Part shown: in pieces, positions 1-12,300 of the stretch | How the letters are laid out: each line of letters begins with the position of its first letter | How positions within the stretch are numbered: the first letter of the stretch is position 1 | Source: Myxococcota bacterium | Lineage (GTDB): Bacteria; Myxococcota_A; SURF-8 | Direction: 5' to 3' | Assembly: GCA_965140415.1 (NCBI GenBank) | Contig: OZ223209.1 | Span: 5,408,001-5,472,000, forward strand | DNA: 64,000 nt | Translations under genes and position numbers: made by a program | Notes under the pieces: generated by a model | Databases searched by the model: none | What the model was told of the DNA's origin: nothing | Seen by the model: only the letters and a program-made list of their open reading frames with translations

Positions 1-1748
1 GTCACCGCAGCGTAATCCAGGCACTGAGCGGCTAACGTCGTTTTGAGCCCCTTGGGTGGCGCGACGATGACGTACAGGCGTCCACCATGCCAGCCACCGT
101 GGAGCAAGTCGTTCAATGTTCCGAATGGAGTGGAGATAACGGCGTTGGTGTCCCGCGCAAACAGCTCGACGACCCGGGCCTGCTGCTGGATGAGAGGACC
201 GTGTTGGCCCGTCTCAAGCAGGCAGCTCTCCAGGTTGTGCTGCAGCTGATGAACCACCGCAGCCGCTGACGGACTGCTATCACTGGAGTTCGCCTCCGAT
301 AGAACCTGATGCACACGATACCGCCGCTCGAATTCCAAGGCCCTGTGGTACGCCGCCTGCCCGGCTTCCGGGCTGTAGGAATGCGCGTGTAACTGTTCCA
401 GGAACTTCTCCACGTCCTCCACCAACGCGTCCCGGTATTGCGCGACACTGCGCTCGGATATATCACGATCGAGTTCCCGATAAACCGCTGCTGATGTCAA
501 TCCGCCATTGGTCATGGCCCGGGCCACCAGGGAGGCTGGGCTGTAGGTCACCGTGATTTCGCCGTTCGACATTAGAGGGCGATCCGGCCAGACGTGCTCT
601 AACCGGTGAACCGGAAGGCCTTCCTCCATGGCGGACCGGAGCAGGTCGAGGGCGACGGGAGGTTCGATCTGCCGCAACCCGAATTCAGACACGGACGGCG
701 GAGGCCACTCGTCTGTCCGCGCCGAACAGTCTCGGCAGCTGAAAAACTCCCGCCAGCCCTTCATGCCGCGCGGATAATCACAACGGAATTCCGCGTTGTG
801 GTTCGAGAAGAAATTTTTGATCTTCCCATCGAACGTCTTGCTGCTCGGGTGATCCTCAGAGGCCTCGGCCAGTTTGGTCGCCAGGTACCGGGATGCCTTC
901 TTATCCAGTCCCCTCGAATGCGCATATTTCGCAAGATTTAGGTTGGCCTTATCGTAGTCGTACTCATGGGACGCTCCGTGTTCCAACATGGCGTCGATGC
1001 AGGGCGGGTGCTCGTACTCCGGTAGTTTCGACCAGTCTGGTTTGACAGAAGGCCCGGACTGCTTCGGCTCCCGGAACCCAGTCGCCTGCGCCTCCTGTCG
1101 TATCCGGTCGTAGGCCTGCCGGAACACCGCCACCGTCACCGCCTTGGTGTTCGCCAACAACGAGACCTGCTCCTCCAGGTCCGGCGGATCCTCGAAACCT
1201 GTGGGAGGCGCGCTGTCGGAGTACCCAGCCGGGTCCAGATACGCCGACCACAACCCCGATCCGCGATGCTTGCAGACCGGCAGCTTCATAACCGCCTGCG
1301 CCGCCTTGGTCGGGACCGCCGTATCGGGCCGGACATCGATGTGCCCTGCGCCGGGACAAGCCACATTGAGCAGATGTTTAAGAAAGGCCTGCAATTGCCC
1401 CGCCCGCACCGGTTCCGCCAGGCAGAAATCAAGGCCGTAGCCCTTGCGCCCGCTGTTGCAAACCAGAGGTGTGGGAAGGCCCAGTTCCTCTATCTTCCGC
1501 AGAACTGCCTGGACCAGAAGCCATTGATCCGCACCGCCGTCGAAATCGAGACGACCCACCCGACAGGTGCTCTCCGGTCCAACGATGTTCAAGGCCGCCG
1601 TCTGCTCACCGCGAAAATGGGCGCGCAGATCTTCATCGGTGATAGGGGCATCCCGGGGCAGGTAGGCCTCGCCGTCCTTGCTCTGGATGTGGACGGCCTG
1701 GCTGGGAACCAAGTACAAACGCATTACCTGTTCAGTCAATCTCTCCAT
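1..1748 (-). CDS. AEP primase / 4-Cys (PriL-CTD-like) / DnaB-like SF4 helicase fusion, partial (runs off the left edge; absent from the ORF track)
   Basis: Hand translation from ATG at 1748 (SD GAAGGAGG) stays open for 582 codons to the edge. Motifs: LRAHFRGEQT..TCRVGRLDFD (AEP motif I DxD), SGRKGYG (motif II-like), HIDVRP and KLP; then PPCI..FRCD..SCRDC; then ISTPFGTLNDLLHGGWHGGRLYVIVAPPKGLKTT (DnaB/RecA-type Walker A region). Confidence 0.8.
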   Translation of the reverse strand, partial: MERLTEQVMRLYLVPSQAVHIQSKDGEAYLPRDAPITDEDLRAHFRGEQTAALNIVGPESTCRVGRLDFDGGADQWLLVQAVLRKIEELGLPTPLVCNSGRKGYGLDFCLAEPVRAGQLQAFLKHLLNVACPGAGHIDVRPDTAVPTKAAQAVMKLPVCKHRGSGLWSAYLDPAGYSDSAPPTGFEDPPDLEEQVSLLANTKAVTVAVFRQAYDRIRQEAQATGFREPKQSGPSVKPDWSKLPEYEHPPCIDAMLEHGASHEYDYDKANLNLAKYAHSRGLDKKASRYLATKLAEASEDHPSSKTFDGKIKNFFSNHNAEFRCDYPRGMKGWREFFSCRDCSARTDEWPPPSVSEFGLRQIEPPVALDLLRSAMEEGLPVHRLEHVWPDRPLMSNGEITVTYSPASLVARAMTNGGLTSAAVYRELDRDISERSVAQYRDALVEDVEKFLEQLHAHSYSPEAGQAAYHRALEFERRYRVHQVLSEANSSDSSPSAAAVVHQLQHNLESCLLETGQHGPLIQQQARVVELFARDTNAVISTPFGTLNDLLHGGWHGGRLYVIVAPPKGLKTTLAAQCLDYAAV

Positions 1749-1959
1749 GGTCTCCTCCTTCACGAGAGAGTAGGCCCGCAACAGCGCCACCACGGCGCGG
1801 CGCGGTGCATAGGCCTATTCTCCCGCGAGGGGGAGGCCGCCCGCCACGGCCCCAGACGGGGGCGGCGGACTCACCCCTTCTTGGGGGTGCTTGAGGATAC
1901 TTGGGCCTCCGCGACCGGACAGATATGACCTGATTTCAGTTGGTTACAGGATCGGGCGC

Positions 1960-2020
1960 GAAAATAAGTGGTGGGTGTTCGGAAAATAAGTGGTGGGTAA
2001 ACGGAAAATAAGTGGTGGGT
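1960..2020. repeat. Three 17-bp direct repeats with 22-bp period (putative iterons)
   Basis: GAAAATAAGTGGTGGGT at 1960, 1982 and 2004, flanked by the inverted repeat TGACCTGATTTCA (1926-1938) / TGACATCAGGTCA (2034-2046), one mismatch. Confidence 0.85.
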
Positions 2021-2043
2021 GATTGTAAGAGCTTGACATCAGG

Positions 2044-4083
2044 TCAGTTTTTAGGCTTCTTGCGTGGCCCGGGCTTTTCTAGTTCAGAGACTAGAATTCG
2101 CTTATCTCTCTTTAAATCCATGGATTTATACATCACCGCATAATCTTCTGCCCCTTTGATCTTTACGAGCTCTCCCAGCGGGTTGGCTGGCGACGGGATT
2201 TCCACCGACCAGTCGGCAATCACCCCGGCCTCCGCCACCTGATCGAGTGAGGTAAATATCCGGTTGGCAGCCTTTTTAGGTGTTAGGCTATTGATCAGCG
2301 AGCCGAGACCGAGAGCATGTAGGATGGTTTCCACCCGCGTGCCGTTGCCATTCGGAGTCTCCAACTCGGTGGTTCCGAGATTCCTGTACGTCGTGCGGAG
2401 GCGCAGCTCGATGTACAGTTGCAGCGCGGGGGCGGTATGCAGGACTTTCCCTCGATAGCTGAACATGGCCTGACGGTTCGTCACCATATAGAGGGCACGT
2501 TGGCCTTCCCCGGTGATGTAGGACGCCAGCTGGGGGTTGATCCGCCAGTGGATGGCATGAGGTTCACCTTTACGGATATCGACTGCCGAGACCTGGATGA
2601 TGCCCGTGATGATCCGCTCCTGGCCTTTATTCCTGAGACCAGAAAAAGGGATGTTGATGCGGCGGGCGACATTCATGAAGGCGAAGAACAACTCGCGAGG
2701 ATTGAGATTTTCGCCGAGGATATTGGTCGTTCCCCTCCTGGTGATCCGGTCAATCTTGTCAGGGCGAAGAGTTTTCCAGAAGTCAGCAGCGGTGGTGACG
2801 GTATCGTGGCCGTTGTTTAGCGTGCCGTTTTCCTCCGCCATCTGGAACAGGCCCACGTATCCCTGCGGCAGGAGCCATGGGACATTCGGCGCGACAAACA
2901 CGGTCTGCACCGAGTTTAGCAGGGTGTCTTTAGACAGGTCATCGTCAATCACCGCGAATTCAAGGTCGCGGTAGGAACGGCTTTGTGAAACCGGGCGTTG
3001 CAAGGCCAAAGCCTCGGCACCTTGACCAGTTGTAACGATGGAGAGTGGTTTGTCCATTTCCGGGTTCACCTTCAGCACCGGCATGTGTGGGATGATATCT
3101 AAGAAATTGGATGGTACCTCTGTGAACTGACCGCGTAGTTCGGCACGTTGATCCGCATTACGCTCAATTCGACACCGCGTCATGTCCAGTTGCCGGCTCG
3201 CTCGGAGGAGTCGTTCTCTATGGCGGTTGATGTAATCGGTTAGACTGAGATACAATTGGCGAATTTCACCGATATACCAGTCGACTTGCTCGCCGGACGT
3301 ATCAGGTGAAAGTTCTCCAAGATCCTTCCGATGTCGAAAAAGTTTAGCAAGTTTCTCGGCCAGCTTGCCGGTGAATTCAGGTGTAGGGATGTCGATCCGC
3401 TTGTTGGTCGGGCCTTCAATGAGCCAGAATTGAATGGTTTCGTCGTCTGAGTCAGAGAGAGTTGTCCCGCAGATCAGACGTTTCGTCGGGATTTTTAGAC
3501 GATCCATCAGGTCATACAGGGCGGTCCAGAATGCCAGGTCGTAGTAGGACTCGACTTCATCCGCGAACGGCATATAGGCGATGCTGGCTTGGGGGGTAGT
3601 AGTTGTACGGCTTAGTATCGAGTGGTTTGGGATCGCGTCCAGATATGCCTGCACGTACTCCAGCTCGGTTTGTTGTTGCTCGCGGAACTGTCTCCGGGCG
3701 GCATCCTCTCTAAACAGCCGTACTTCGGTGGTTTTCGTTGTGGGTGACGTTCCCTCCATCGCGGTTACATTCGATTCCACGCGCAGGACATCTTCGTGGC
3801 CGGGCTTACGCCAGAACCGAGTCTCCAGGTGGGTCAGCGCAGCCAATGGGAACTCCTGCCACAGGTCGGTGGCGGCATCCTCCACGGATCGGTCACCAAC
3901 CGGTTCGGGGTAGCAGTAGAAATAGCCCTGGGCGAATGGTTTTTTGTAGTAGCCCGTCCAGTGGTCATCTGCAGCGGGCATCGCTACGTCGATCACGTTG
4001 ACGGTGAGACCGCGCGCCGGGACTATGGGCAGGTCGATCGTGGCGAACGGGGAATTAGGTGTGGTGAAGGGGATTAGATTCAT
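2044..4083 (-). CDS. Large hypothetical protein, probable replication initiator
   Basis: Long ORF (likely start MNLIP at 4083) ending directly at the iteron array. The C-terminus (VETILHALGL..AANRIFTSLDQVAEAGVIADW) resembles a winged-helix Rep domain. Function is inferred from context. Confidence 0.5.
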   Translation of the reverse strand: MNLIPFTTPNSPFATIDLPIVPARGLTVNVIDVAMPAADDHWTGYYKKPFAQGYFYCYPEPVGDRSVEDAATDLWQEFPLAALTHLETRFWRKPGHEDVLRVESNVTAMEGTSPTTKTTEVRLFREDAARRQFREQQQTELEYVQAYLDAIPNHSILSRTTTTPQASIAYMPFADEVESYYDLAFWTALYDLMDRLKIPTKRLICGTTLSDSDDETIQFWLIEGPTNKRIDIPTPEFTGKLAEKLAKLFRHRKDLGELSPDTSGEQVDWYIGEIRQLYLSLTDYINRHRERLLRASRQLDMTRCRIERNADQRAELRGQFTEVPSNFLDIIPHMPVLKVNPEMDKPLSIVTTGQGAEALALQRPVSQSRSYRDLEFAVIDDDLSKDTLLNSVQTVFVAPNVPWLLPQGYVGLFQMAEENGTLNNGHDTVTTAADFWKTLRPDKIDRITRRGTTNILGENLNPRELFFAFMNVARRINIPFSGLRNKGQERIITGIIQVSAVDIRKGEPHAIHWRINPQLASYITGEGQRALYMVTNRQAMFSYRGKVLHTAPALQLYIELRLRTTYRNLGTTELETPNGNGTRVETILHALGLGSLINSLTPKKAANRIFTSLDQVAEAGVIADWSVEIPSPANPLGELVKIKGAEDYAVMYKSMDLKRDKRILVSELEKPGPRKKPKN

Positions 4084-4196
4084 GTTTACCCGCTTATCGA
4101 AAAACGGTGTAGATATTTTATTTGTGCAGGGTTTCATCTCAACTATCCAGGAACAACCGAAAGGCTTTGTTATCTATGAAAACCCTACACACTGTG

Positions 4197-5609
4197 TCAT
4201 CCCCGCGCATGTCGATTCAGCCTAACGCCGGAATATACAAGGCCTTTTCGCGTTCGGATTTTCTCGAACCGCTCGGACATTTTTTTGCCGAATGCCGTTT
4301 CCGTCATCGGTTTGCCACCGCGTTCCGTACAGTAGGTTCGGTAACGACTATAAAATTCTCGCGCTGTGCTGGCTGTTGGGAATCCGGGTTGAACCTCCGG
4401 ATCGACCGTCACCTCGTCGCGCAAAAAGGCATCAATCGTGGCGGATTCCTGGGCATCGGCGTATGCCTCGGTCTCGTCTGCAATCCAGGAGAGTGCGGCG
4501 GCGGGATCGCTGCGTTGGTCAATAAACCCGGCGGTATCGGTCCTGAGCGGCTCCAGCAACCAGTGGAGGAATGCGGGCCCCTCCTCGAATAGAGCCTGAT
4601 GCCTTAGAAATTCGTAATCCTCCGTGGCTAGCATCCCTTCGGCCGGGATGACATGGAACAATTTTGGTATCTCGTCGCGAGAACCATGAAACACCGGGGT
4701 GCCGTGGTCGGCTGGCGTTGTCATGATGATGGTATACGGCGGCGCGAGTATATCGACCGTCTCCGTTTTGGAGAGGTTAAGCTGGATTTCCGGACGTTCG
4801 TAGAACGGCCATAGAATCCGCTCGTCCAGCATGGCATATTTCGCCAGATGGATGTCCACGGCGAGGCGGAGACCGAGTAGTTGCTGGAGCGGGCGATTTC
4901 TATTTGGTTCGATAGCTGCTGTAACTGGTATTTCAACACAGTAGCTGCCAGCGATCTGGACAATTAACTGGAATAGCAACCGGATGCCATCCATATCGGC
5001 TGCTTTCAGAACGATCAGTTTTTTTGCTCTGAATCCTGCTAGTACGGAACCTAGGTATCGACGGAAAAATTCAACCTTTTCGATATCATCATCGAATAGC
5101 GTTTTTAAAACCCTCATAATCCGATCGCATTTGCCAGTTTGATTTATTGGCAACCGAGTAGATGCCAGTAGGAAAAAGTCCGGCGTTGTCGAATTCAGTT
5201 GACCTGTACGGACGTCATACAACCCCGCCGGTGTGTTTACATACCCGACATGCCTCTGGAAATAGCGGATATCCGTTTCACAGACGGCCTCAGTCAACCT
5301 CAAAATTTCGCGGTAGACGCTGGTTTTAGCCAACGCAGCTGCACGACTGGCATCCGCCCAACGTCCCTGCCGCGATAGCTGGTCAGCAAACTGGAGAATT
5401 ACCGATTGGATGTCTGGGAACAGATCGTTCTCACGAACGGGTTCAAATATCCGCCCATTGAACCGCAGCCACTTTATGGTCGGGTTATACGCCAGAGCCG
5501 AGCCATGCTCTCGTAGAAATGCCTCTGCAATCGCCGGTAGGCCGACGAAATTCTGCTCCAACAACCGCGCCACTTCTGGACCGAGGGTGGGACTATTTGT
5601 TTTGGTCAT
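4197..5609 (-). CDS. P4/D5-family primase-helicase C-terminal homolog with degenerate Walker A/B
   Basis: D5_N-like WLRFNGRIFEP and GLYDVRTGQL, then FFRRYLGSVLAG. The expected P-loop reads LKAADMDGIR. The C-terminal wHTH (YSRYRTYC..TETAFGKKM..YSGVRL) is retained. Confidence 0.75.
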   Translation of the reverse strand: MTKTNSPTLGPEVARLLEQNFVGLPAIAEAFLREHGSALAYNPTIKWLRFNGRIFEPVRENDLFPDIQSVILQFADQLSRQGRWADASRAAALAKTSVYREILRLTEAVCETDIRYFQRHVGYVNTPAGLYDVRTGQLNSTTPDFFLLASTRLPINQTGKCDRIMRVLKTLFDDDIEKVEFFRRYLGSVLAGFRAKKLIVLKAADMDGIRLLFQLIVQIAGSYCVEIPVTAAIEPNRNRPLQQLLGLRLAVDIHLAKYAMLDERILWPFYERPEIQLNLSKTETVDILAPPYTIIMTTPADHGTPVFHGSRDEIPKLFHVIPAEGMLATEDYEFLRHQALFEEGPAFLHWLLEPLRTDTAGFIDQRSDPAAALSWIADETEAYADAQESATIDAFLRDEVTVDPEVQPGFPTASTAREFYSRYRTYCTERGGKPMTETAFGKKMSERFEKIRTRKGLVYSGVRLNRHARG

Positions 5610-5814
5610 TTTTCACAGCCTCCTCGCTGGTGCTGCGGAATGTCCGTTCCGATAGCCAGCGGTCCAGTTCATCGACATCGTAAACGGCACGACCGCGGGG
5701 GCCGCCGAGACGCGTATAAACTGGCCCACAACCACGGCAGCGCCATGTTCGTAGCGTTTGAGGTTTGACGCCGATTCGTTCAGCCGCATTTTTCGTATTG
5801 ATCGGTTTGCTCAT
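5593..5814 (-). CDS. AlpA/excisionase-like HTH protein
   Basis: AAERIGVKPQTLRTWRCRGCGPVYTRLGG..AVYDVDELDRW; SD GGAGG upstream; overlaps the start of the next gene. Confidence 0.85.
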   Translation of the reverse strand: MSKPINTKNAAERIGVKPQTLRTWRCRGCGPVYTRLGGPRGRAVYDVDELDRWLSERTFRSTSEEAVKNDQNK

Positions 5815-5892
5815 TCGTAGACCTCCATCTACGAGTGAGCATCCAGGATATGGGGGTGTTTGGATAGGGTTTTTTCGGAGGGAAATTTTCCC

Positions 5893-7134
5893 CTAATTAT
5901 GTTTTGTTTTACCTCGCTTACGATTTGAGCCCAATATTTCTAGACCGAGTTCATCCGCAATTGAGTTGCTATATATCCCAATTTCCTTTGTGTGATTTGT
6001 ATCGCAGCCATCTATATCGTACTTTGATTCTATTGGAGGAACAATTCTGCGAACAGCCCACTCTATATGGAGATTTCTAATTTTAGGATTTTGCTCGGTA
6101 TACATTTCATCGATTTCTTCATCTGGCACTAAGCCGAACTCCTCTGGAAGTAGAGGTCTAATCCCGTCTTTTTCCAAGCAATCAAGATACTTTTTCAAAT
6201 CAGCTCTGAATTTGTCCTGGATCCTTTTTTCCGCCTGCTTCCTTTCTTCACCATTATCAATCCACCAGAAATCACGAAAATGAAACTGGAGTGCGGTTGG
6301 GATTTCTTGTGGGTTATTATCATAATGCAGTTGACGTTTCTGCTCGTCGCTCATCCAGTCTGGCATAAGAATTCGTTCTCTGTTATCGAAGAACGGAAAG
6401 GCCAGCCATGGCGTACCATTGCGGAAGAGATCAATTAGTAACTCATCATCAAGTCCGTTTATGCAGCATCGAATCCAGAACTCCGGTTTAAGAAAGAAGG
6501 TCAAACGCCACCGTTTATTGACCGGAACCCTCTTGTCGGAGGCAAGCAGGTCTGCAAGTGCCGAGATGAGACATTTCCATCTTAAATTTTCCCAATATGT
6601 AAGATTTCCGAGCTTAGATGCACGATTGCTGCCCCCCGAGTACTTTGCAGAAAATTGGACATCACGTTCTATTTGAAGACGTTTCTCTTCAGAGAATGGA
6701 GCAGGGAGAACCGGGGCAAACACCTCTTGCCTAGCGAACGCTTCACCGTTATTTAACCAATACCAAAGTTGCCGCTCAGCATAACCAACGCACCATCCAG
6801 CCGTGAGGTTGAACTTGGTGAGGTAATTTTCTAGCTCACAACGAAATTTCGCGTAGCAATCTATTGCCTGTACCGCATTAACATTCTTTCCCTGAAAGCA
6901 TTGAAAGATATTATAGAATTCATCAAGGGTGGAAGCTTTCGCCATTGCAAGAACCGCTTCTTCAATGTTGCTGATTGTACTAATTGAATTGATCGAATCA
7001 AGCCAGTCTTTGTAAATCTGCAATCCTTCCTTTGCAAGGTCTCTTGAAAATTCTGGTCGCAGTTCAAGTGTATTTTTCCAGAACAAACTCATTAGCGACA
7101 CTAAATCTGGTCTTTCCCAATCTGAGTGGGTCAT
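5893..7134 (-). CDS. Hypothetical protein (AT-rich), coupled to the integrase
   Basis: 413-aa ORF whose start overlaps the integrase stop (ATGA); no recognised motif. Confidence 0.7.
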   Translation of the reverse strand: MTHSDWERPDLVSLMSLFWKNTLELRPEFSRDLAKEGLQIYKDWLDSINSISTISNIEEAVLAMAKASTLDEFYNIFQCFQGKNVNAVQAIDCYAKFRCELENYLTKFNLTAGWCVGYAERQLWYWLNNGEAFARQEVFAPVLPAPFSEEKRLQIERDVQFSAKYSGGSNRASKLGNLTYWENLRWKCLISALADLLASDKRVPVNKRWRLTFFLKPEFWIRCCINGLDDELLIDLFRNGTPWLAFPFFDNRERILMPDWMSDEQKRQLHYDNNPQEIPTALQFHFRDFWWIDNGEERKQAEKRIQDKFRADLKKYLDCLEKDGIRPLLPEEFGLVPDEEIDEMYTEQNPKIRNLHIEWAVRRIVPPIESKYDIDGCDTNHTKEIGIYSNSIADELGLEILGSNRKRGKTKHN

Positions 7135-8303
7135 GCCTTCCCCTCTGACCTTTTTCTCCTCAACGGCAACACTTTCTCCCGCTCTACCAGGGCATCTCGA
7201 AGCTCTTCAATTCCAAGGGGCGCATAATGCCGTTCCGTTACTCGAATATCCGAATGGCGCAGAAGCTTACTGGCGACATGTAGCCCCTTTGTTTTGGCAA
7301 TCTGAAGACCGAAGGTTCGCCGGATGTCGTGAATGGTGACGCCATCGAGTTTCGCCTTCTCCTTTATGAAAGCCCAAGGCTTTTGTAAATCGGAGCGGGG
7401 ACGGTCTGGTTTGCGGCCTGGAATAATGTAAATGCTTCTGCGCGGCAACTGGTCGAGCAAAGCAACGGAGTTCGGGCTTAATGGCTGAACCTGTGGACGA
7501 CCGCTTTTCGGTCTCGGAATGCGCCACAGGCCTTCATCAAGGTCGATGTCCTCCCATTTGGCATGCAACACTTCCGACATTCGTGCCCCTGTTTCCACAA
7601 GGAGCAGGAACGCAGCGTAAACGCTACGGTCAAAACGTTTTGTTTCCGCCAGCAAATGAATGGCATCGATGAACCGCTCAAATTCCTTATCGCTGAGCAC
7701 ACGCGCTCTCGGGTCATTCTCTGGAATGGGCTTCACCTTCATGGCCACATTGCTGTCTACTTTGCTAAGGCGCCAAGCATCCTGAAGGCAAGCTCTCACG
7801 CTGGCAAGCCATCGGTTCGCGGCAATTCGGCTTCCGCCCGCGATGATGATGTCCCGAAGCTTCTCTACATCCTCCGTCGTGATGGAGTGCAGAGGACGCT
7901 TACCCCAATGTTCTTTTGCTCGGCCGAGATAACGCGTGTCTTCACGAGGATGCTTTTTTCGTTGCTTGACCTTTTCGAGATAGGTATCGGCCCACTCGCC
8001 GAAAATCAATGCGTGCCGCCGTTTCTGGCGCTCATCCAGGGGGTCGGTGCCTTGACTCACCTCGGCCATCTTTTGCTTGGCCAATTCCCGCGCCTGATCC
8101 GGTGTAAGACGTCCGTACGCGCCCAGCGTCATTCGTCGTCGCCGGCCACGATCACCATACTCGATGAAGAAGCTCTTTCTGCCGGTGGGATAGGTTACAA
8201 GCCCAAAGCACTGGGTTTCTGTATCGTAGTAGCGAGTCCCGTGCGTTTTCTTGCTTTTCGGGAGCCGATCGATGTTCTTTTTCGTCAGTTTGATCTGCGC
8301 CAT
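7131..8303 (-). CDS. Tyrosine integrase with N-terminal arm-binding domain (P4-like)
   Basis: N-terminal GLVTYPTGRKSF..MTLGAYGRLTPDQARE; catalytic TGAR, HDIRRT, LLRH and ERHY; adjacent to the tRNA fragment. Confidence 0.95.
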   Translation of the reverse strand: MAQIKLTKKNIDRLPKSKKTHGTRYYDTETQCFGLVTYPTGRKSFFIEYGDRGRRRRMTLGAYGRLTPDQARELAKQKMAEVSQGTDPLDERQKRRHALIFGEWADTYLEKVKQRKKHPREDTRYLGRAKEHWGKRPLHSITTEDVEKLRDIIIAGGSRIAANRWLASVRACLQDAWRLSKVDSNVAMKVKPIPENDPRARVLSDKEFERFIDAIHLLAETKRFDRSVYAAFLLLVETGARMSEVLHAKWEDIDLDEGLWRIPRPKSGRPQVQPLSPNSVALLDQLPRRSIYIIPGRKPDRPRSDLQKPWAFIKEKAKLDGVTIHDIRRTFGLQIAKTKGLHVASKLLRHSDIRVTERHYAPLGIEELRDALVEREKVLPLRRKRSEGKA

Positions 8304-8377
8304 GAACGTGCATGTCCTCGTCTATTTCTTGCCCAACCGTCAGCAGTCTTGCCCCGGATTCAGCAGGTCGTAAAAAT

Positions 8378-8439
8378 GAACGTACGCCCGTCGTACAGAG
8401 GCTCGAAAAACCATAAAAGAACGTACACCCGTCGTACAG
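8378..8439. repeat. Two 21-bp direct repeats, putative integrase arm-type sites
   Basis: GAACGTACGCCCGTCGTACAG (8378) and GAACGTACACCCGTCGTACAG (8419), between the integrase start and the att core. Confidence 0.65.
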
Positions 8440-8546
8440 CGAGATGTAAGCTCGTTTGAACCCATCAACGCTTTAGACCTTGATAATACTGGACTTGGGC
8501 GACATCTGTCAACACTTATGTGAACTCGTAAAAACCAGAAAGTGCG

Positions 8547-8593
8547 GATTCGTAATCAGCAGGTCAGCGGTTCGAATCCGCTCGTTGGCTCCA
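8547..8593 (+). other. 3' fragment of tRNA-Thr(CGT), att site
   Basis: GATTCGTAATCAGCAGGTCAGCGGTTCGAATCCGCTCGTTGGCTCCA gives the anticodon loop, T arm and CCA. The upstream sequence cannot form a D arm or the 5' acceptor strand. Confidence 0.9.
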
Positions 8594-8601
8594 GTAATTA
8601 C

Positions 8602-8636
8602 AAGGACTTAGCGATTTCGCTAAGTCCTTTCTTTTT
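8602..8636 (+). terminator. Intrinsic terminator after the tRNA fragment
   Basis: AAGGACTTAGCG-ATTT-CGCTAAGTCCTT followed by TCTTTTT. Confidence 0.75.
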
Positions 8637-9305
8637 GTGGAGCTACCAAGGAGCTACCATAAGAAAGCAAGTCAAAGGGGAAAGTTTGCATGGCGATACA
8701 TGCTCGTTCATCATGCTTATATCGCTTTTCCATCCCTTTCTCGTCCGTTCGTAGGGCTATTGACGCCCAAGGGGCCCCATGAAAGTGAACCCCTGTCCTC
8801 GCCCTCAAAGAGGCGGAAAAATATTGATCCACCCAGTCGACGAGGATGCGAGGATTTTTTTGGGGGAAATTTTCGCCATCTGCCCGGCAAGATCGAGATG
8901 ATGCCAGTGGATCGAAGCATTGTGCAACGGGGGCTGGTTTGTGCAAAAGTGAAACGATATGGACTTTCAACTGGGTACATTTTGGGGCCATTTTTGGCGT
9001 AGCTCCAAGCGCCCGTAAGGTTACCCAACGGCACGGTTTTAGCCAAAACATCAAGCCGGAATATACGGCGATTTTTTCCGTGATATAGGTTGGCCGGGCA
9101 GTCGATCCCTGGTCAGTGTTACAGGTGCTGTTGCGTGGAATCCCCGAAATGGTCATTTGGAATTCCTGTCTCTCCTTCCTTGAATAGAAGTCAACTTGGC
9201 GAGGTTCCTTGATAAATTTATTTTTTTTTTGGATGCTAATAAGGAATGGTTACGTTTATACAGGCAACAGCATTCGCCGAATCGAATATACAGCAGGAGA
9301 AAGAC

Positions 9306-12300
9306 ATGAAACAAATTATCACCATTGGAATGCTAGGATTACTGCTGGTCTTTACCACGGGATGCGACGACGGGGGATCTTCAACCGGGAGTGATACGGA
9401 TGGAGACCAGGTCGAAACGGACGGAGATGATGCCGACGGCGACGCGACCGATGGTGACAGGCCTGACGGTGACGTGATCGATGGTGACGATCCGGATGGC
9501 GATGAACCGGATGGTGACGTGGTCGACGGAGATACGGCTGACGGCGACGTGACCGATGGCGATGCAACCGACGGAGACACAGTCGACGGGGACGTAACCG
9601 ACGGCGACATTGCAGATGGTGACTTTACGGACGGAGATATCGTCGATGGGGATTCTGCAGATGGGGATATCACTGATGGTGACGCAAGCGATGGTGATAT
9701 CAGCGACGGCGATATGGTTGACGGCGACCTCGATATGGATGAAGACACTATCGATGGTGACGTGATTGACCATGATCCCGAATCAGAAGAAGAAACCATT
9801 ATCCCGGACACCTGGACGGACGATTCCAGCGGCCTGATCTGGATGGTGATGGATGCCGGAGCGGAATCCTGGAATGATGCCAAAGTTTATTGCGAAGATC
9901 TGGAACTCGAGGGATATCTGGATTGGCGATTACCCGATATTTCCGATTTGCGCAGCCTCGTGCGTGGCTGCCCCGATATCGAGACGGGAGGAAACTGCGG
10001 CGTAACAAGTAGCTGCCAGGACTCTGTTTGCCGAACGTCCGATTGCGCTGGTTGCTCGGAGAATGCTGGCCCGGACGATGGCTGCTATCGCCCGGCTCCT
10101 ATTGAAGGCAGTTGCGGTCAGCATTGGTCGTCGTCGGTGGTTGCAGACTATGCAGGCTCGGCATGGTATCTCGACTTCAGAAACGGATATATGGATTACG
10201 CACCGAGCGCGGTCGATCTCACGGCCTTCCGCTGCGTTCATGATGCACCACTGCCAGATGGTGATCTTGATGACGATACCGACGAGGACATCGTCGATGG
10301 TGATGTTGAAAACGAGTTTGAGGTCGAGGAAGAAACCTCCGATACGATTTCCTGCGCCAACGGCACCTGCATCGACAGCGCTACGGGTCTTGAATGGCAG
10401 GAAGGTGATGGCGGCGTGCATTTCTGGTATAACGCTAAAGACTATTGTGAAGATCTGGTGCTTGATGGTCAAGATGACTGGCGCATGCCTTCTATTTCCG
10501 AGATGAGAAGCATAATAAGAGATTGTGAAGATACTCAAACCGGAGGCTTATGTGGAGTTTCAAATAGTTGCACGAACGTAGATTGCAGGGATGCATCCTG
10601 TGATGGTTGTACTGCCAATGAGGGACCTGATGCTGGCTGCTATTGGGCAGAGCCACTTGGAGGAACGTGCGGTTGGTACTGGTCGTCTACATCAGCAGAT
10701 AGTGGAGTATGGATTGTGAAATTCGCCAACGCTTCTATCATCTCCACTCATATCGTTCAACCTCTTCAAATACGTTGTGTCAGAAATGCCGATATCGTTG
10801 ATGGCGATGTTGATGAAGAATTGGAAATCGAGGAAGAGATTGAAGAGGAAATTGAAGAAGAAATACCTGAGCCATTAGTTTGTGCAAACGGCAGCTGTGT
10901 TGATAGCTCAACCGGTCTGGAATGGCAGGAAACCAACGGACTTGGTGATATGTTCTTCAACACTGAAGATTATTGTGAAGATCTGGTGCTTAATAATCAT
11001 GACGATTGGCGCATGCCTTCTATCTCCGAGATGAGAACCATAATAAGAGGTTGTGGAGATACTCAAACAGAAGGATCTTGCCAAGCGACAAATAGTTGCA
11101 CAACCGCAAATTGTGTGGATGCATCCTGTGATGGTTGTGATGACAATGAAGGACCTGATTCTGGTTGCTATTGGGCGGAGCCACTTTCAGGTATTTGCAC
11201 CTGGTATTGGTCGTCTACATGGACAGACGGTGGAGTTTATGTTGTAAAATTCGGTAGCGCAGGCATCATTGGAACTCATATTGTTCAGCCGCTTTATGTA
11301 CGTTGTGTGAGAAATGCCGATATAGTTGATGGCGATGTTGATGAAGAACTGGAAGTCGAAGAAGAGATTGAAGTAGAAGCTGAAGTAGAAGGTTCAACCG
11401 TTTGTACTCCAGACTACACCATAGATTCATTGCCCTATCAGAACAGTGACGACACAACAGGTGACCTCAATGAGTTTAATCTAGATTATCAAGAAAGCTG
11501 TTTTGACTGGACAGCCTTAGGGGGAGATCATGTCTATTCAATCACATTAAGCACCGGGGATAATATTCAGATTGAATTAACGACTTCAAATGCGAATTTT
11601 GATCCGATGATTGTGATTGCCACAGAATGCTCAGATATGGCCTCCTGTTTGGAAGGAGCAGATTATAACACCGGTGGAGGCTCCGAGGCTTTGTCCTTCA
11701 CAGCTTCTGAAAATGGTGAATACCTGATAGTGGTGGATTCAGGAAATCATAATTCTGGACCTGATGGGGCAGGCCCATACAGCCTAAGTATTACAGGAAC
11801 CATTACCGTGGATGGTGATGTGGATGAAGAACTGGATGAAGAGATCGAAGAAGAGGAAGATGTTGAACCCATAGACTCTCTTCCATGTTCTGATGGTGTT
11901 TGTCTTGATGTTGACTCCGGGTTGGAGTGGCAAGAAACATCTGAGCCGGAATTTGGTGGAATGAGTTTTGATGATGCCAAGACTTATTGCCAGAATCTTG
12001 ATCTGGATGATGGCGGTTGGCATTTGCCAACAATTGATGAGTACCGTACCCTGATTAGAGGTTGCCCGAAAACAGAACCGGGTGGTGAGTGTAGTTTGAC
12101 AGACAGTTGTTCTGCATCTTCTTGTCATGTTACTTCGTGCTATGGCTGTACTTCCGATGTTGGTCCGGATGAGGGTTGTTATCAACCTGATGGCCTTGAA
12201 GGTTCATGTGAAACTTATTGGACATCCACAATTGTGGAAAATAATCATGATTTTGCCTGGCACATCCGAATTAAATCAACCAGATTTGACCGCTCTTTCA

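Follow-up and report, generated by a model that had tools for sequence, protein, structure and literature searches.

A probable iteron-type replicon with a self-encoded primase-helicase-polymerase on a tRNA-Thr island of a Myxococcota bacterium

How does an integrative element replicate when the P4-type helicase that it encodes has lost its ATPase motifs? The question is raised by a 64-kb stretch of a Myxococcota genome (G000:C1:5408001-5472000, hereafter the window), at the left end of which lies a module of genes that are all on the minus strand and read, from right to left: int, a 413-aa open reading frame (ORF), an alpA-like gene, a D5-type helicase gene, rep, a set of iterons, and a replicase gene. 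The same genome carries a second island of 62 kb (G000:C1:3324298-3386750; our locus L002 covers its right end) with the D5, Rep, iteron and replicase module, and the two copies share 84% nucleotide identity from the D5 start (5588) across at least 16 kb. A preliminary description of the window had interpreted the module as the replication system of an integrative element, one bounded by attachment (att) repeats, and the present analysis supports this. We conclude that the module is probably a replicon of the iteron type that encodes its own replicase and resides on a 93-kb island at tRNA-Thr.

The replicase gene runs off the left end of the window: its first 582 codons occupy positions 1..1748 on the minus strand (ATG at 1748, with the ORF opening at a GTG at 1793), and the remainder lies at G000:C1:5405201-5408000. 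Counted from the GTG, the whole protein comprises 1530 aa; counted from the ATG, which follows an AGGAGG, it comprises 1515 aa, the length found in the database record as well. Pfam places four domains along it: AEP-TOTE, an archaeo-eukaryotic primase (AEP) domain, at residues 49-155; DnaB_C at 553-785 (4.3e-19); DNA_pol_A_exo1, a 3'-5' exonuclease, at 949-1111 (2.6e-15); and DNA_pol_A at 1145-1529 (1.7e-77), the AEP-TOTE match in the full-length protein falling just under its cut-off (26.6 bits vs. 27). In a structural model of the first 545 aa (predicted local distance difference test score, pLDDT, 78), the primase-polymerase (Prim-Pol) domain is closest to the CRISPR-associated Prim-Pol CAPP (7nqd_A; Z 21.9, root-mean-square deviation (rmsd) 2.4 over 193 residues), compared with Z 9.8 for IncQ RepB' (3h25_A); a helical domain (235-337) matches PriX weakly (5of3_C; Z 5.7, 89 aligned), and residues 358-514 form a DnaB N-terminal-type domain (Z 7.4-8.2). 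The DxD of AEP motif I (here DFD), four cysteines and the Walker B motif are invariant in 11/11 aligned sequences, and the Asp of the third acidic AEP motif, RPD, is invariant too; the four cysteines fit an Fe-S cluster, but do not prove it. Motifs A, B and C of PolA are present, and the best matches of the polymerase are 8jrb_A (1.8e-74) and the PREX chains (1.5e-65), with Taq and Klenow at about 1e-46; by these criteria the polymerase is assigned to family A and to the clade of Aquificae and apicoplast-PREX enzymes. The AEP/Fe-S/DnaB fusion of the preliminary description thus holds for the AEP, the four-cysteine domain and the DnaB part, but was incomplete, as an exonuclease and a family-A polymerase follow on the same polypeptide. 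The protein database contains five further fusions, full or partial, with this architecture; the N-terminus of the replicase was not found in IMG/VR, and the AEP part was found, weakly, in one of 400 other genomes sampled from the phylum.

The putative initiator is encoded by rep (2044..4137, minus strand), an ORF of 697 aa whose probable start is at 4086 (M18; 680 aa), since upstream of this codon the sequence of the second copy diverges. An AlphaFold2 model built from 29 sequences (pLDDT 78, predicted template modelling score 0.70) separates an N-terminal stretch (about 330 aa, including a long coiled coil), for which we obtained no fold match, from a C-terminal part (about residues 334-670) with a tandem winged-helix fold. 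In a VIA-align search, the best match to the model was π bound to iteron DNA (2nra_C; Z 12.3, rmsd 4.4, 226/252 residues, model residues 334-668), followed by domains 2-3 of RctB (5ubf_A; Z 10.8, 222 aligned); the next, unrelated structure scored Z 7.3, and RepE Z 7.0 (201 aligned). Foldseek, from which the VIA-align search is independent, returned RctB, RepE54 and π at probabilities of 0.90-0.99 and weak E-values of 6.5e-3 to 0.15. Such a structure search had been proposed as a check on the assignment of this protein as an initiator, and it yields the tandem winged-helix fold of iteron initiators as far as a predicted model can tell. The sequence, on the other hand, places Rep in no Pfam family, RepC included: Pfam (E <= 0.1), PHROG and NCBIfam gave no match, the 29 family members scanned contained no relevant Pfam domain, and the family profile found no π, RepE or RctB chain among PDB sequences. 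The family is small, its 37 representatives among 1.84 billion proteins (HMMER) being conserved over residues about 283-690. Searches for Rep in PLSDB plasmids (tblastn), in IMG/VR contigs and in the 400 other genomes from the phylum were negative; a word-based protein search returned nothing beyond the genome's own cluster, and residues 20-340 found nothing in the protein atlas (best score 0.75).

Three direct 22-bp iterons (1960..2028; minus-strand core ACCCACCACTTATTTTC; Tandem Repeats Finder score 105) separate rep from the replicase gene. Their 17-nt core has exactly three occurrences in the window, spaced by 22 bp, where 0.13 are expected and 0/100 shuffles reach three; in the 5.98-Mb genome it is confined to this array and that of the second copy, besides one site with two mismatches. 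No other tandem repeat in the first 9 kb of the window reaches a score of 70, and the array is identical in the second genomic copy. Two 13-nt arms of an imperfect palindrome, inverted, 92% complementary and 95 nt apart, bracket the iterons: one at 2034..2046, just past the rep stop codon, and its partner at 1926..1938 on the replicase side. From the iterons to the replicase start codon extends a G+C-rich leader (1749..1925, minus strand) predicted to form hairpins: folded as single-stranded DNA it reaches -50.6 kcal/mol (z = -2.8), and 3/200 shuffles fold as well. The leader could be a DNA-unwinding region, a priming region or a translational control element. Across the origin region as a whole, the two copies are 97% identical, compared with 84% in the flanking genes.

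The D5-type gene (4197..5609, minus strand) encodes a 470-aa homologue of the D5_N/P4-family superfamily 3 (SF3) helicases, with a D5_N match of 5.2e-12 (46.7 bits; cut-off 22.4) and a TIGR01613 score of 78.4 bits, under the cut-off of 108.7. The protein has no primase domain: it begins at D5_N and aligns to positions 369-829 of the 855-position profile phrog_1156, and the PHROG phage primase/helicase profiles match its residues 27-468 with their helicase half. A C-terminal winged-helix-like region is retained, where Pox_D5 and RFX matches (residues 417-455) both remain below cut-off; PDB sequences gave no match to the protein. Alignment with the three nearest active relatives found reveals that the Walker A motif GxGxNGK[ST] has become AADMDGIR, that the Walker B Glu has given way to His, and that the motif C Asn (sensor-1) and the conserved Arg (Arg finger) are lost; the second genomic copy (81% identity) has the same motif losses. 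These replacements predict a catalytically dead protein that can neither hydrolyse ATP nor be the helicase of the element, so that the earlier claim of a dead D5 helicase is confirmed, and for both copies. The idea that the gene is decaying after displacement of a P4-type replicase does not agree with the comparison of the copies: the ORF is intact in both, and the ratio of nonsynonymous to synonymous substitution rates (dN/dS) is 0.107 at dS about 1.05. The D5 gene is therefore no decaying relic, and its product is kept by selection for some non-catalytic role; a dead helicase under such strong purifying selection constitutes a clean case of an enzyme retained for a non-enzymatic function. 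The other two genes are likewise constrained (dN/dS 0.20 for Rep and 0.16 for the replicase, hence 0.11-0.20 for the three), with the lowest values in the helicase and polymerase cores.

The neighbourhood search suggested in the preliminary description recovers the same order of parts elsewhere. A pattern scan of GTDB genomes yielded one related locus (L007) and a metagenome scan yielded one more (L008). L007 is a 51-kb contig of an uncultured proteobacterial metagenome-assembled genome on which a 762-aa Rep homologue (30% identity) is followed by a 3 x 22-bp array of similar unit and then by an AEP/DnaB/exonuclease fusion, which stops where a resolvase and a Tn3-family transposase begin. The three iterons with a 22-bp period, one of the central observations of the preliminary description, are thus kept in position, number and period beside a Rep that is only 30% identical. 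A comparable layout is seen on three circular cyanobacterial plasmids, pDongsha4a, pAL20118a and pGM04 (12.2, 17.0 and 26.7 kb as a set): a gene for a protein of 510-561 aa is followed by repeats of 21 bp, about three in number, and then by separate AEP-DnaB and exonuclease-PolA genes. The AEP, four-cysteine, DnaB and exonuclease-PolA proteins of these plasmids are 28-30% identical to the replicase over its first 783 aa; the first protein is annotated with a helix-turn-helix (HTH) domain in 2/3 records, and in the pDongsha4a protein Pfam identifies a C-terminal HTH_3. The 12.2-kb plasmid has no other replication gene annotated. A D5 gene is absent from the L007 contig, and the module therefore occurs without D5 both there and on the three plasmids. 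On pGM04, a perfect 89-bp repeat in 2.3 copies lies just upstream of the 21-bp iterons (L015 6989-7192).

The module resides at the right end of an island bounded by tRNA-Thr(CGU) sequence. The right attachment site, attR (8547..8593, plus strand), is a 47-nt repeat of the 3' part of tRNA-Thr(CGU) beside the integrase gene; it differs at 1/47 positions from the 3' end of the genome's sole tRNA-Thr(CGU) gene, and ARAGORN finds no complete tRNA at 8547-8593. The full tRNA-Thr(CGU) gene lies 93 kb to the left, at window coordinates -84561..-84486, so that the island between the two spans 93 kb. The second island is flanked by 45-nt repeats of tRNA-Pro(GGG). In each island the integrase adjoins the partial copy of the tRNA repeat, and both islands retain full-length att repeats and integrases; the integrase of the second island, 32% identical to that of the window, sits at the end opposite the module. 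Logan contigs of two sequencing runs end at either edge of the 47-nt repeat, each edge meeting three different flanks, as fits a genome with three copies of the repeat, and neither an attP nor an attB junction is readable in the Logan contigs of these two runs. Contig depths are alike inside and outside the island, contig depth being no measure of copy number. The third copy of the 47-nt segment is exact and lies 1.2 Mb away from the window (G000:C1:4179293-4179339, minus strand); no integrase or element-like ORF is found within about 25 kb of it, and it may be the scar of an earlier integration or of a rearrangement.

Three further genes separate attR from D5. The tyrosine integrase (7131..8303, minus strand; 390 aa) matches Phage_integrase (2.3e-18) and Arm-DNA-bind_3 (3.9e-16). 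The 413-aa ORF between int and alpA (5893..7134, minus strand) has no match in Pfam, PHROGs or NCBIfam, and the second island lacks it, an unrelated 343-aa ORF occupying its place. The AlpA-like HTH protein (5593..5814, minus strand; 73 aa), whose stop codon overlaps the start of the D5 gene, matches HTH_17 (4.1e-06) and phrog_66, 'excisionase and transcriptional regulator' (4.5e-10), and is a candidate excisionase or regulator. No Rfam match was found in window positions 1-10000. G+C content is 0.61 over window positions 1-2000 vs. 0.44-0.55 in the remaining window; this contrast and the absence of Rep from the 400 other genomes of the phylum support a foreign origin of the module.

Between tRNA-Thr and attR (cargo stretch L003-L005, window -84000 to -37000), the island carries two McrBC/AAA_5 sets, an Eco57I/MmeI-like type IIG restriction-modification enzyme, two WYL/WCX regulators, NERD-UvrD, AddAB-like, PD-(D/E)XK, SMC-like ATPase and ThiF-like genes, large secreted Kelch/Lcl proteins, and a lone DnaB_C protein of 276 aa. 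This cargo looks like that of a defence island; no conjugation or virion genes are found among the 51 ORFs scanned, a set that excludes two ORFs across locus borders. An IS481-like transposase gene lies directly downstream of the replicase. Further on, a block common to both islands (L001 4400-10900, window -10500 to -4100) contains ORFs of 546, 403, 249, 249 and 176 aa and a weakly ThiS-like ORF of 87 aa, almost without family matches, with IS481/IS630-like HTH fragments interspersed. The two islands have segments in common at both ends, and are therefore one kind of element with variable cargo.

On the observed domain content, folds, repeats, conserved layout, selection and att sites we base the following model of how the element works. 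The integrase and the AlpA-like protein would excise the island as a circle; Rep, of about 680 aa, would bind the three 22-bp iterons downstream of its gene through its two winged-helix domains, as do π, RepE and RctB; and Rep would then open the adjacent DNA and recruit the replicase polyprotein encoded beside the origin. The DnaB-like ring of the replicase would unwind the template, the attached AEP with its four-cysteine helical domain would prime, and the PREX-clade family-A polymerase would extend. Because the polyprotein combines a DnaB-like helicase, an AEP primase and a PolA, the helicase, primase and replicative polymerase of the host would not be needed; single-stranded DNA-binding protein, ligase, topoisomerases and primer removal would come from the host. 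The D5 protein, predicted to be unable to hydrolyse ATP, would be kept by selection for a non-catalytic task such as DNA binding, regulation or interference, which is the weakest step of the model.

Several observations weigh against this model. The resemblance of Rep to iteron initiators is one of fold, and the assignment depends on a predicted fold; iteron binding by Rep, excision and replication, as well as the metal cluster, are what we infer. Only two independent loci, this genome and L007, join the Rep family, iterons and replicase: in L008, which has a third Rep homologue, a different gene follows, with only irregular short repeats before the contig end, and on the cyanobacterial plasmids the first protein is no homologue of Rep (hhalign probability 0.1%). 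No clear A+T-rich unwinding element lies beside the iterons, where the leader is G+C-rich. Parts of the enzymes also deviate from their relatives: AEP motif II has Gly in this clade, compared with the usual His in the cyanobacterial relatives; the helicase Walker A motif (window 80-110) reads APPKGLKT in both copies vs. G-K-[ST] in 9/11 relatives, the glycine preceding the lysine being shifted by one place; and the ExoI Glu has changed to Lys in the window copy (D-V-K vs. D-x-E, at replicase residue about 975, L001 about 13860, left of the window), whereas the second copy and the relatives keep Glu, so that the proofreading site may be inactive in the window copy only. The Rep gene of the second copy, moreover, has an in-frame TAG near codon 156.

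The last of these deviations, together with the Walker A and ExoI changes and the IS481-like transposase gene directly downstream of the replicase, would be explained if the module were an inactive remnant on islands that have become fixed, its replicon silent. We nevertheless regard this as very unlikely, as the three genes evolve at dN/dS 0.11-0.20 with the strongest constraint in the helicase and polymerase cores, the origin region is more similar between the copies than are the genes around it, and both islands have full-length att repeats and integrases. A function other than replication is conceivable as well: the only Pfam match of the AEP is to the 'TOTE conflict system' AEP family, albeit at 26.6 bits against a cut-off of 27, its best structural match is a CRISPR-associated Prim-Pol, and the island holds two McrBC sets, a type IIG enzyme, WYL regulators, NERD/UvrD and AddAB-like genes, so that the module might be a conflict, defence or repair system that makes or degrades DNA rather than a replicon. 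We give this explanation hardly any credence, however: on a 12.2-kb circular plasmid nothing but the replicase pair with three repeats is a plausible replication module, the protein encoded next to the replicase here folds like an iteron initiator, and repeats of fixed number and period directly between the two genes suit an origin rather than a defence locus.

A third explanation, which follows the preliminary description, agrees with ours in taking the module for a replicon but gives it a different history: an IncQ-like replicon would have displaced an ancestral P4-type replicase, of which the D5 gene would be the decaying relic. The order int, alpA, D5 is indeed like that of P4 and satellites, the D5 protein lacks both the primase domain and the ATPase motifs, the replicase AEP is similar in fold to IncQ RepB' (3h25_A), three iterons at a 22-bp period are found in IncQ too, and the occurrence of the module elsewhere without D5 indicates that module and D5 have separate histories. 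Yet we consider this version unlikely: the D5 gene is intact in both copies and under the constraint described above; the fold of the initiator is π/RctB-like, with no match to any Pfam family including RepC; CAPP-type Prim-Pols (Z 21.9) match the AEP far better than RepB' does; the replicase has a polymerase, which is absent from IncQ; and two copies cannot tell the order of events. We therefore retain the iteron-type replicon with a self-encoded replicase as our reading of the module, with the D5 protein as a component under selection.

If this reading is right, all three enzymes would be joined in one protein beside an initiator and an origin, which would make the element the most self-sufficient bacterial theta-type replicon known to us and a candidate both for broad-host-range vectors and for a minimal defined in vitro replication system. 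Firing of the replicon after excision, if it occurs, could increase the number of copies of the 62- and 93-kb defence islands and help them to spread. It is also possible, although we advance this only tentatively, that these loci belong to an undescribed replicon family, in which a single-polypeptide replicase is loaded at three 21-22-bp iterons by interchangeable initiators, which is common to tRNA-integrated defence islands and small cyanobacterial plasmids, and in which the dead D5 protein serves as a non-enzymatic partner or regulator in the islands.

How does such a replicon compare with known systems? Iteron plasmids normally use the helicase, primase and polymerase of the host, and it is the host's DnaB, DnaG and DNA polymerase III that are recruited by initiators of the π (R6K), RepE (F) and RctB (Vibrio chromosome 2) type. 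Rep shares with these initiators the C-terminal tandem winged helices and the direct repeats of about 22 bp that adjoin its gene; it differs in its size of about 680 aa, with an N-terminal extension of about 330 aa and a coiled coil, and in the lack of detected sequence similarity, and the element differs in supplying its own replicase. IncQ plasmids such as RSF1010, with RepC, three iterons of about 22 bp, the RepA helicase and the RepB' primase, are independent of host initiation proteins and owe their broad host range to encoding two of the three enzymes (helicase, primase and polymerase) themselves. The element resembles them in having an initiator, three iterons of about 22 bp, and a self-encoded AEP-fold primase and RecA-fold hexameric helicase. 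The differences are that Rep has no RepC match; that the AEP resembles CAPP and LigD-type Prim-Pols more than it does RepB' (Z 21.9 vs. 9.8); that primase, DnaB-type helicase and polymerase are fused here, whereas the IncQ RepA helicase is a separate protein; and that the element is integrative, IncQ being a small mobilisable plasmid. The analogy with IncQ drawn earlier is thus valid at the level of organization (an initiator, three iterons, an own primase and helicase), but does not extend to proteins of the RepC, RepB' and RepA types, and the polymerase goes beyond IncQ.

The D5 homologue resembles the P4 α and D5-type primase-helicases of satellites and integrated elements in its D5_N domain, its SF3-homologous core, its winged-helix-like C-terminus and its place behind int and alpA, but a primase domain is absent, and the residues of Walker A, Walker B and motif C and the Arg are replaced. 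A further likeness is that of the uncharacterised replication regions of pDongsha4a, pAL20118a and pGM04, in which the AEP, four-cysteine, DnaB and exonuclease-PolA parts are preceded by about three 21-bp repeats and the gene of a large DNA-binding protein; these replicons differ in their split replicase, their non-homologous first protein, their existence as autonomous plasmids and the absence of a D5 gene. The cyanobacterial CyRepA family was considered as a known family for the module and rejected, as its proteins combine DUF3854 and DEXDc domains (available parts of PMC10079941), not AEP and DnaB.

The claim that the system is undescribed stands for the replicon as a whole and not for all of its parts. 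Our searches of full-text literature returned no description of the complete replicon (initiator, three iterons and this replicase), although supplements to papers may list such proteins. Fusions of AEP to PolA, in contrast, are already in print: about 7% of the bacterial cluster-8 ('Hot Spring 1') PolAs bear an N-terminal AEP primase-polymerase, for which the accessible portion of PMC10201439 mentions no DnaB domain, origin or initiator. A survey of AEPs mentions DnaB-fused AEPs, and its accessible text makes no mention of a polymerase fusion (PMC5862659). Primase/helicase-PolA polyproteins have likewise been noted, from apicoplasts and Aquificae viruses, in the available part of PMC7689252, which describes the Pol of Pyrovirus OS3173 as a polyprotein of 1606 aa that combines a putative primase/helicase at its N-terminus with an exonuclease and a same-clade PolA; that protein differs in having a DUF927 helicase and in being encoded by a phage genome.

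Another counterpart of the replicase is PREX of the apicoplast, with which it shares the order of activities in one polypeptide, the PolA clade and a superfamily 4 (SF4)/DnaB-like helicase. The two differ in the primase, which is of the TOPRIM type in PREX (PMC10201439, available sections) and an AEP with a four-cysteine domain here, and in their genetic setting: PREX is the product of a nuclear gene of a eukaryote, for which the same sections describe no initiator or iteron context. Should the module function as we propose, it would represent a bacterial counterpart of the PREX polyprotein, built on a polymerase of the same clade and with its origin attached.

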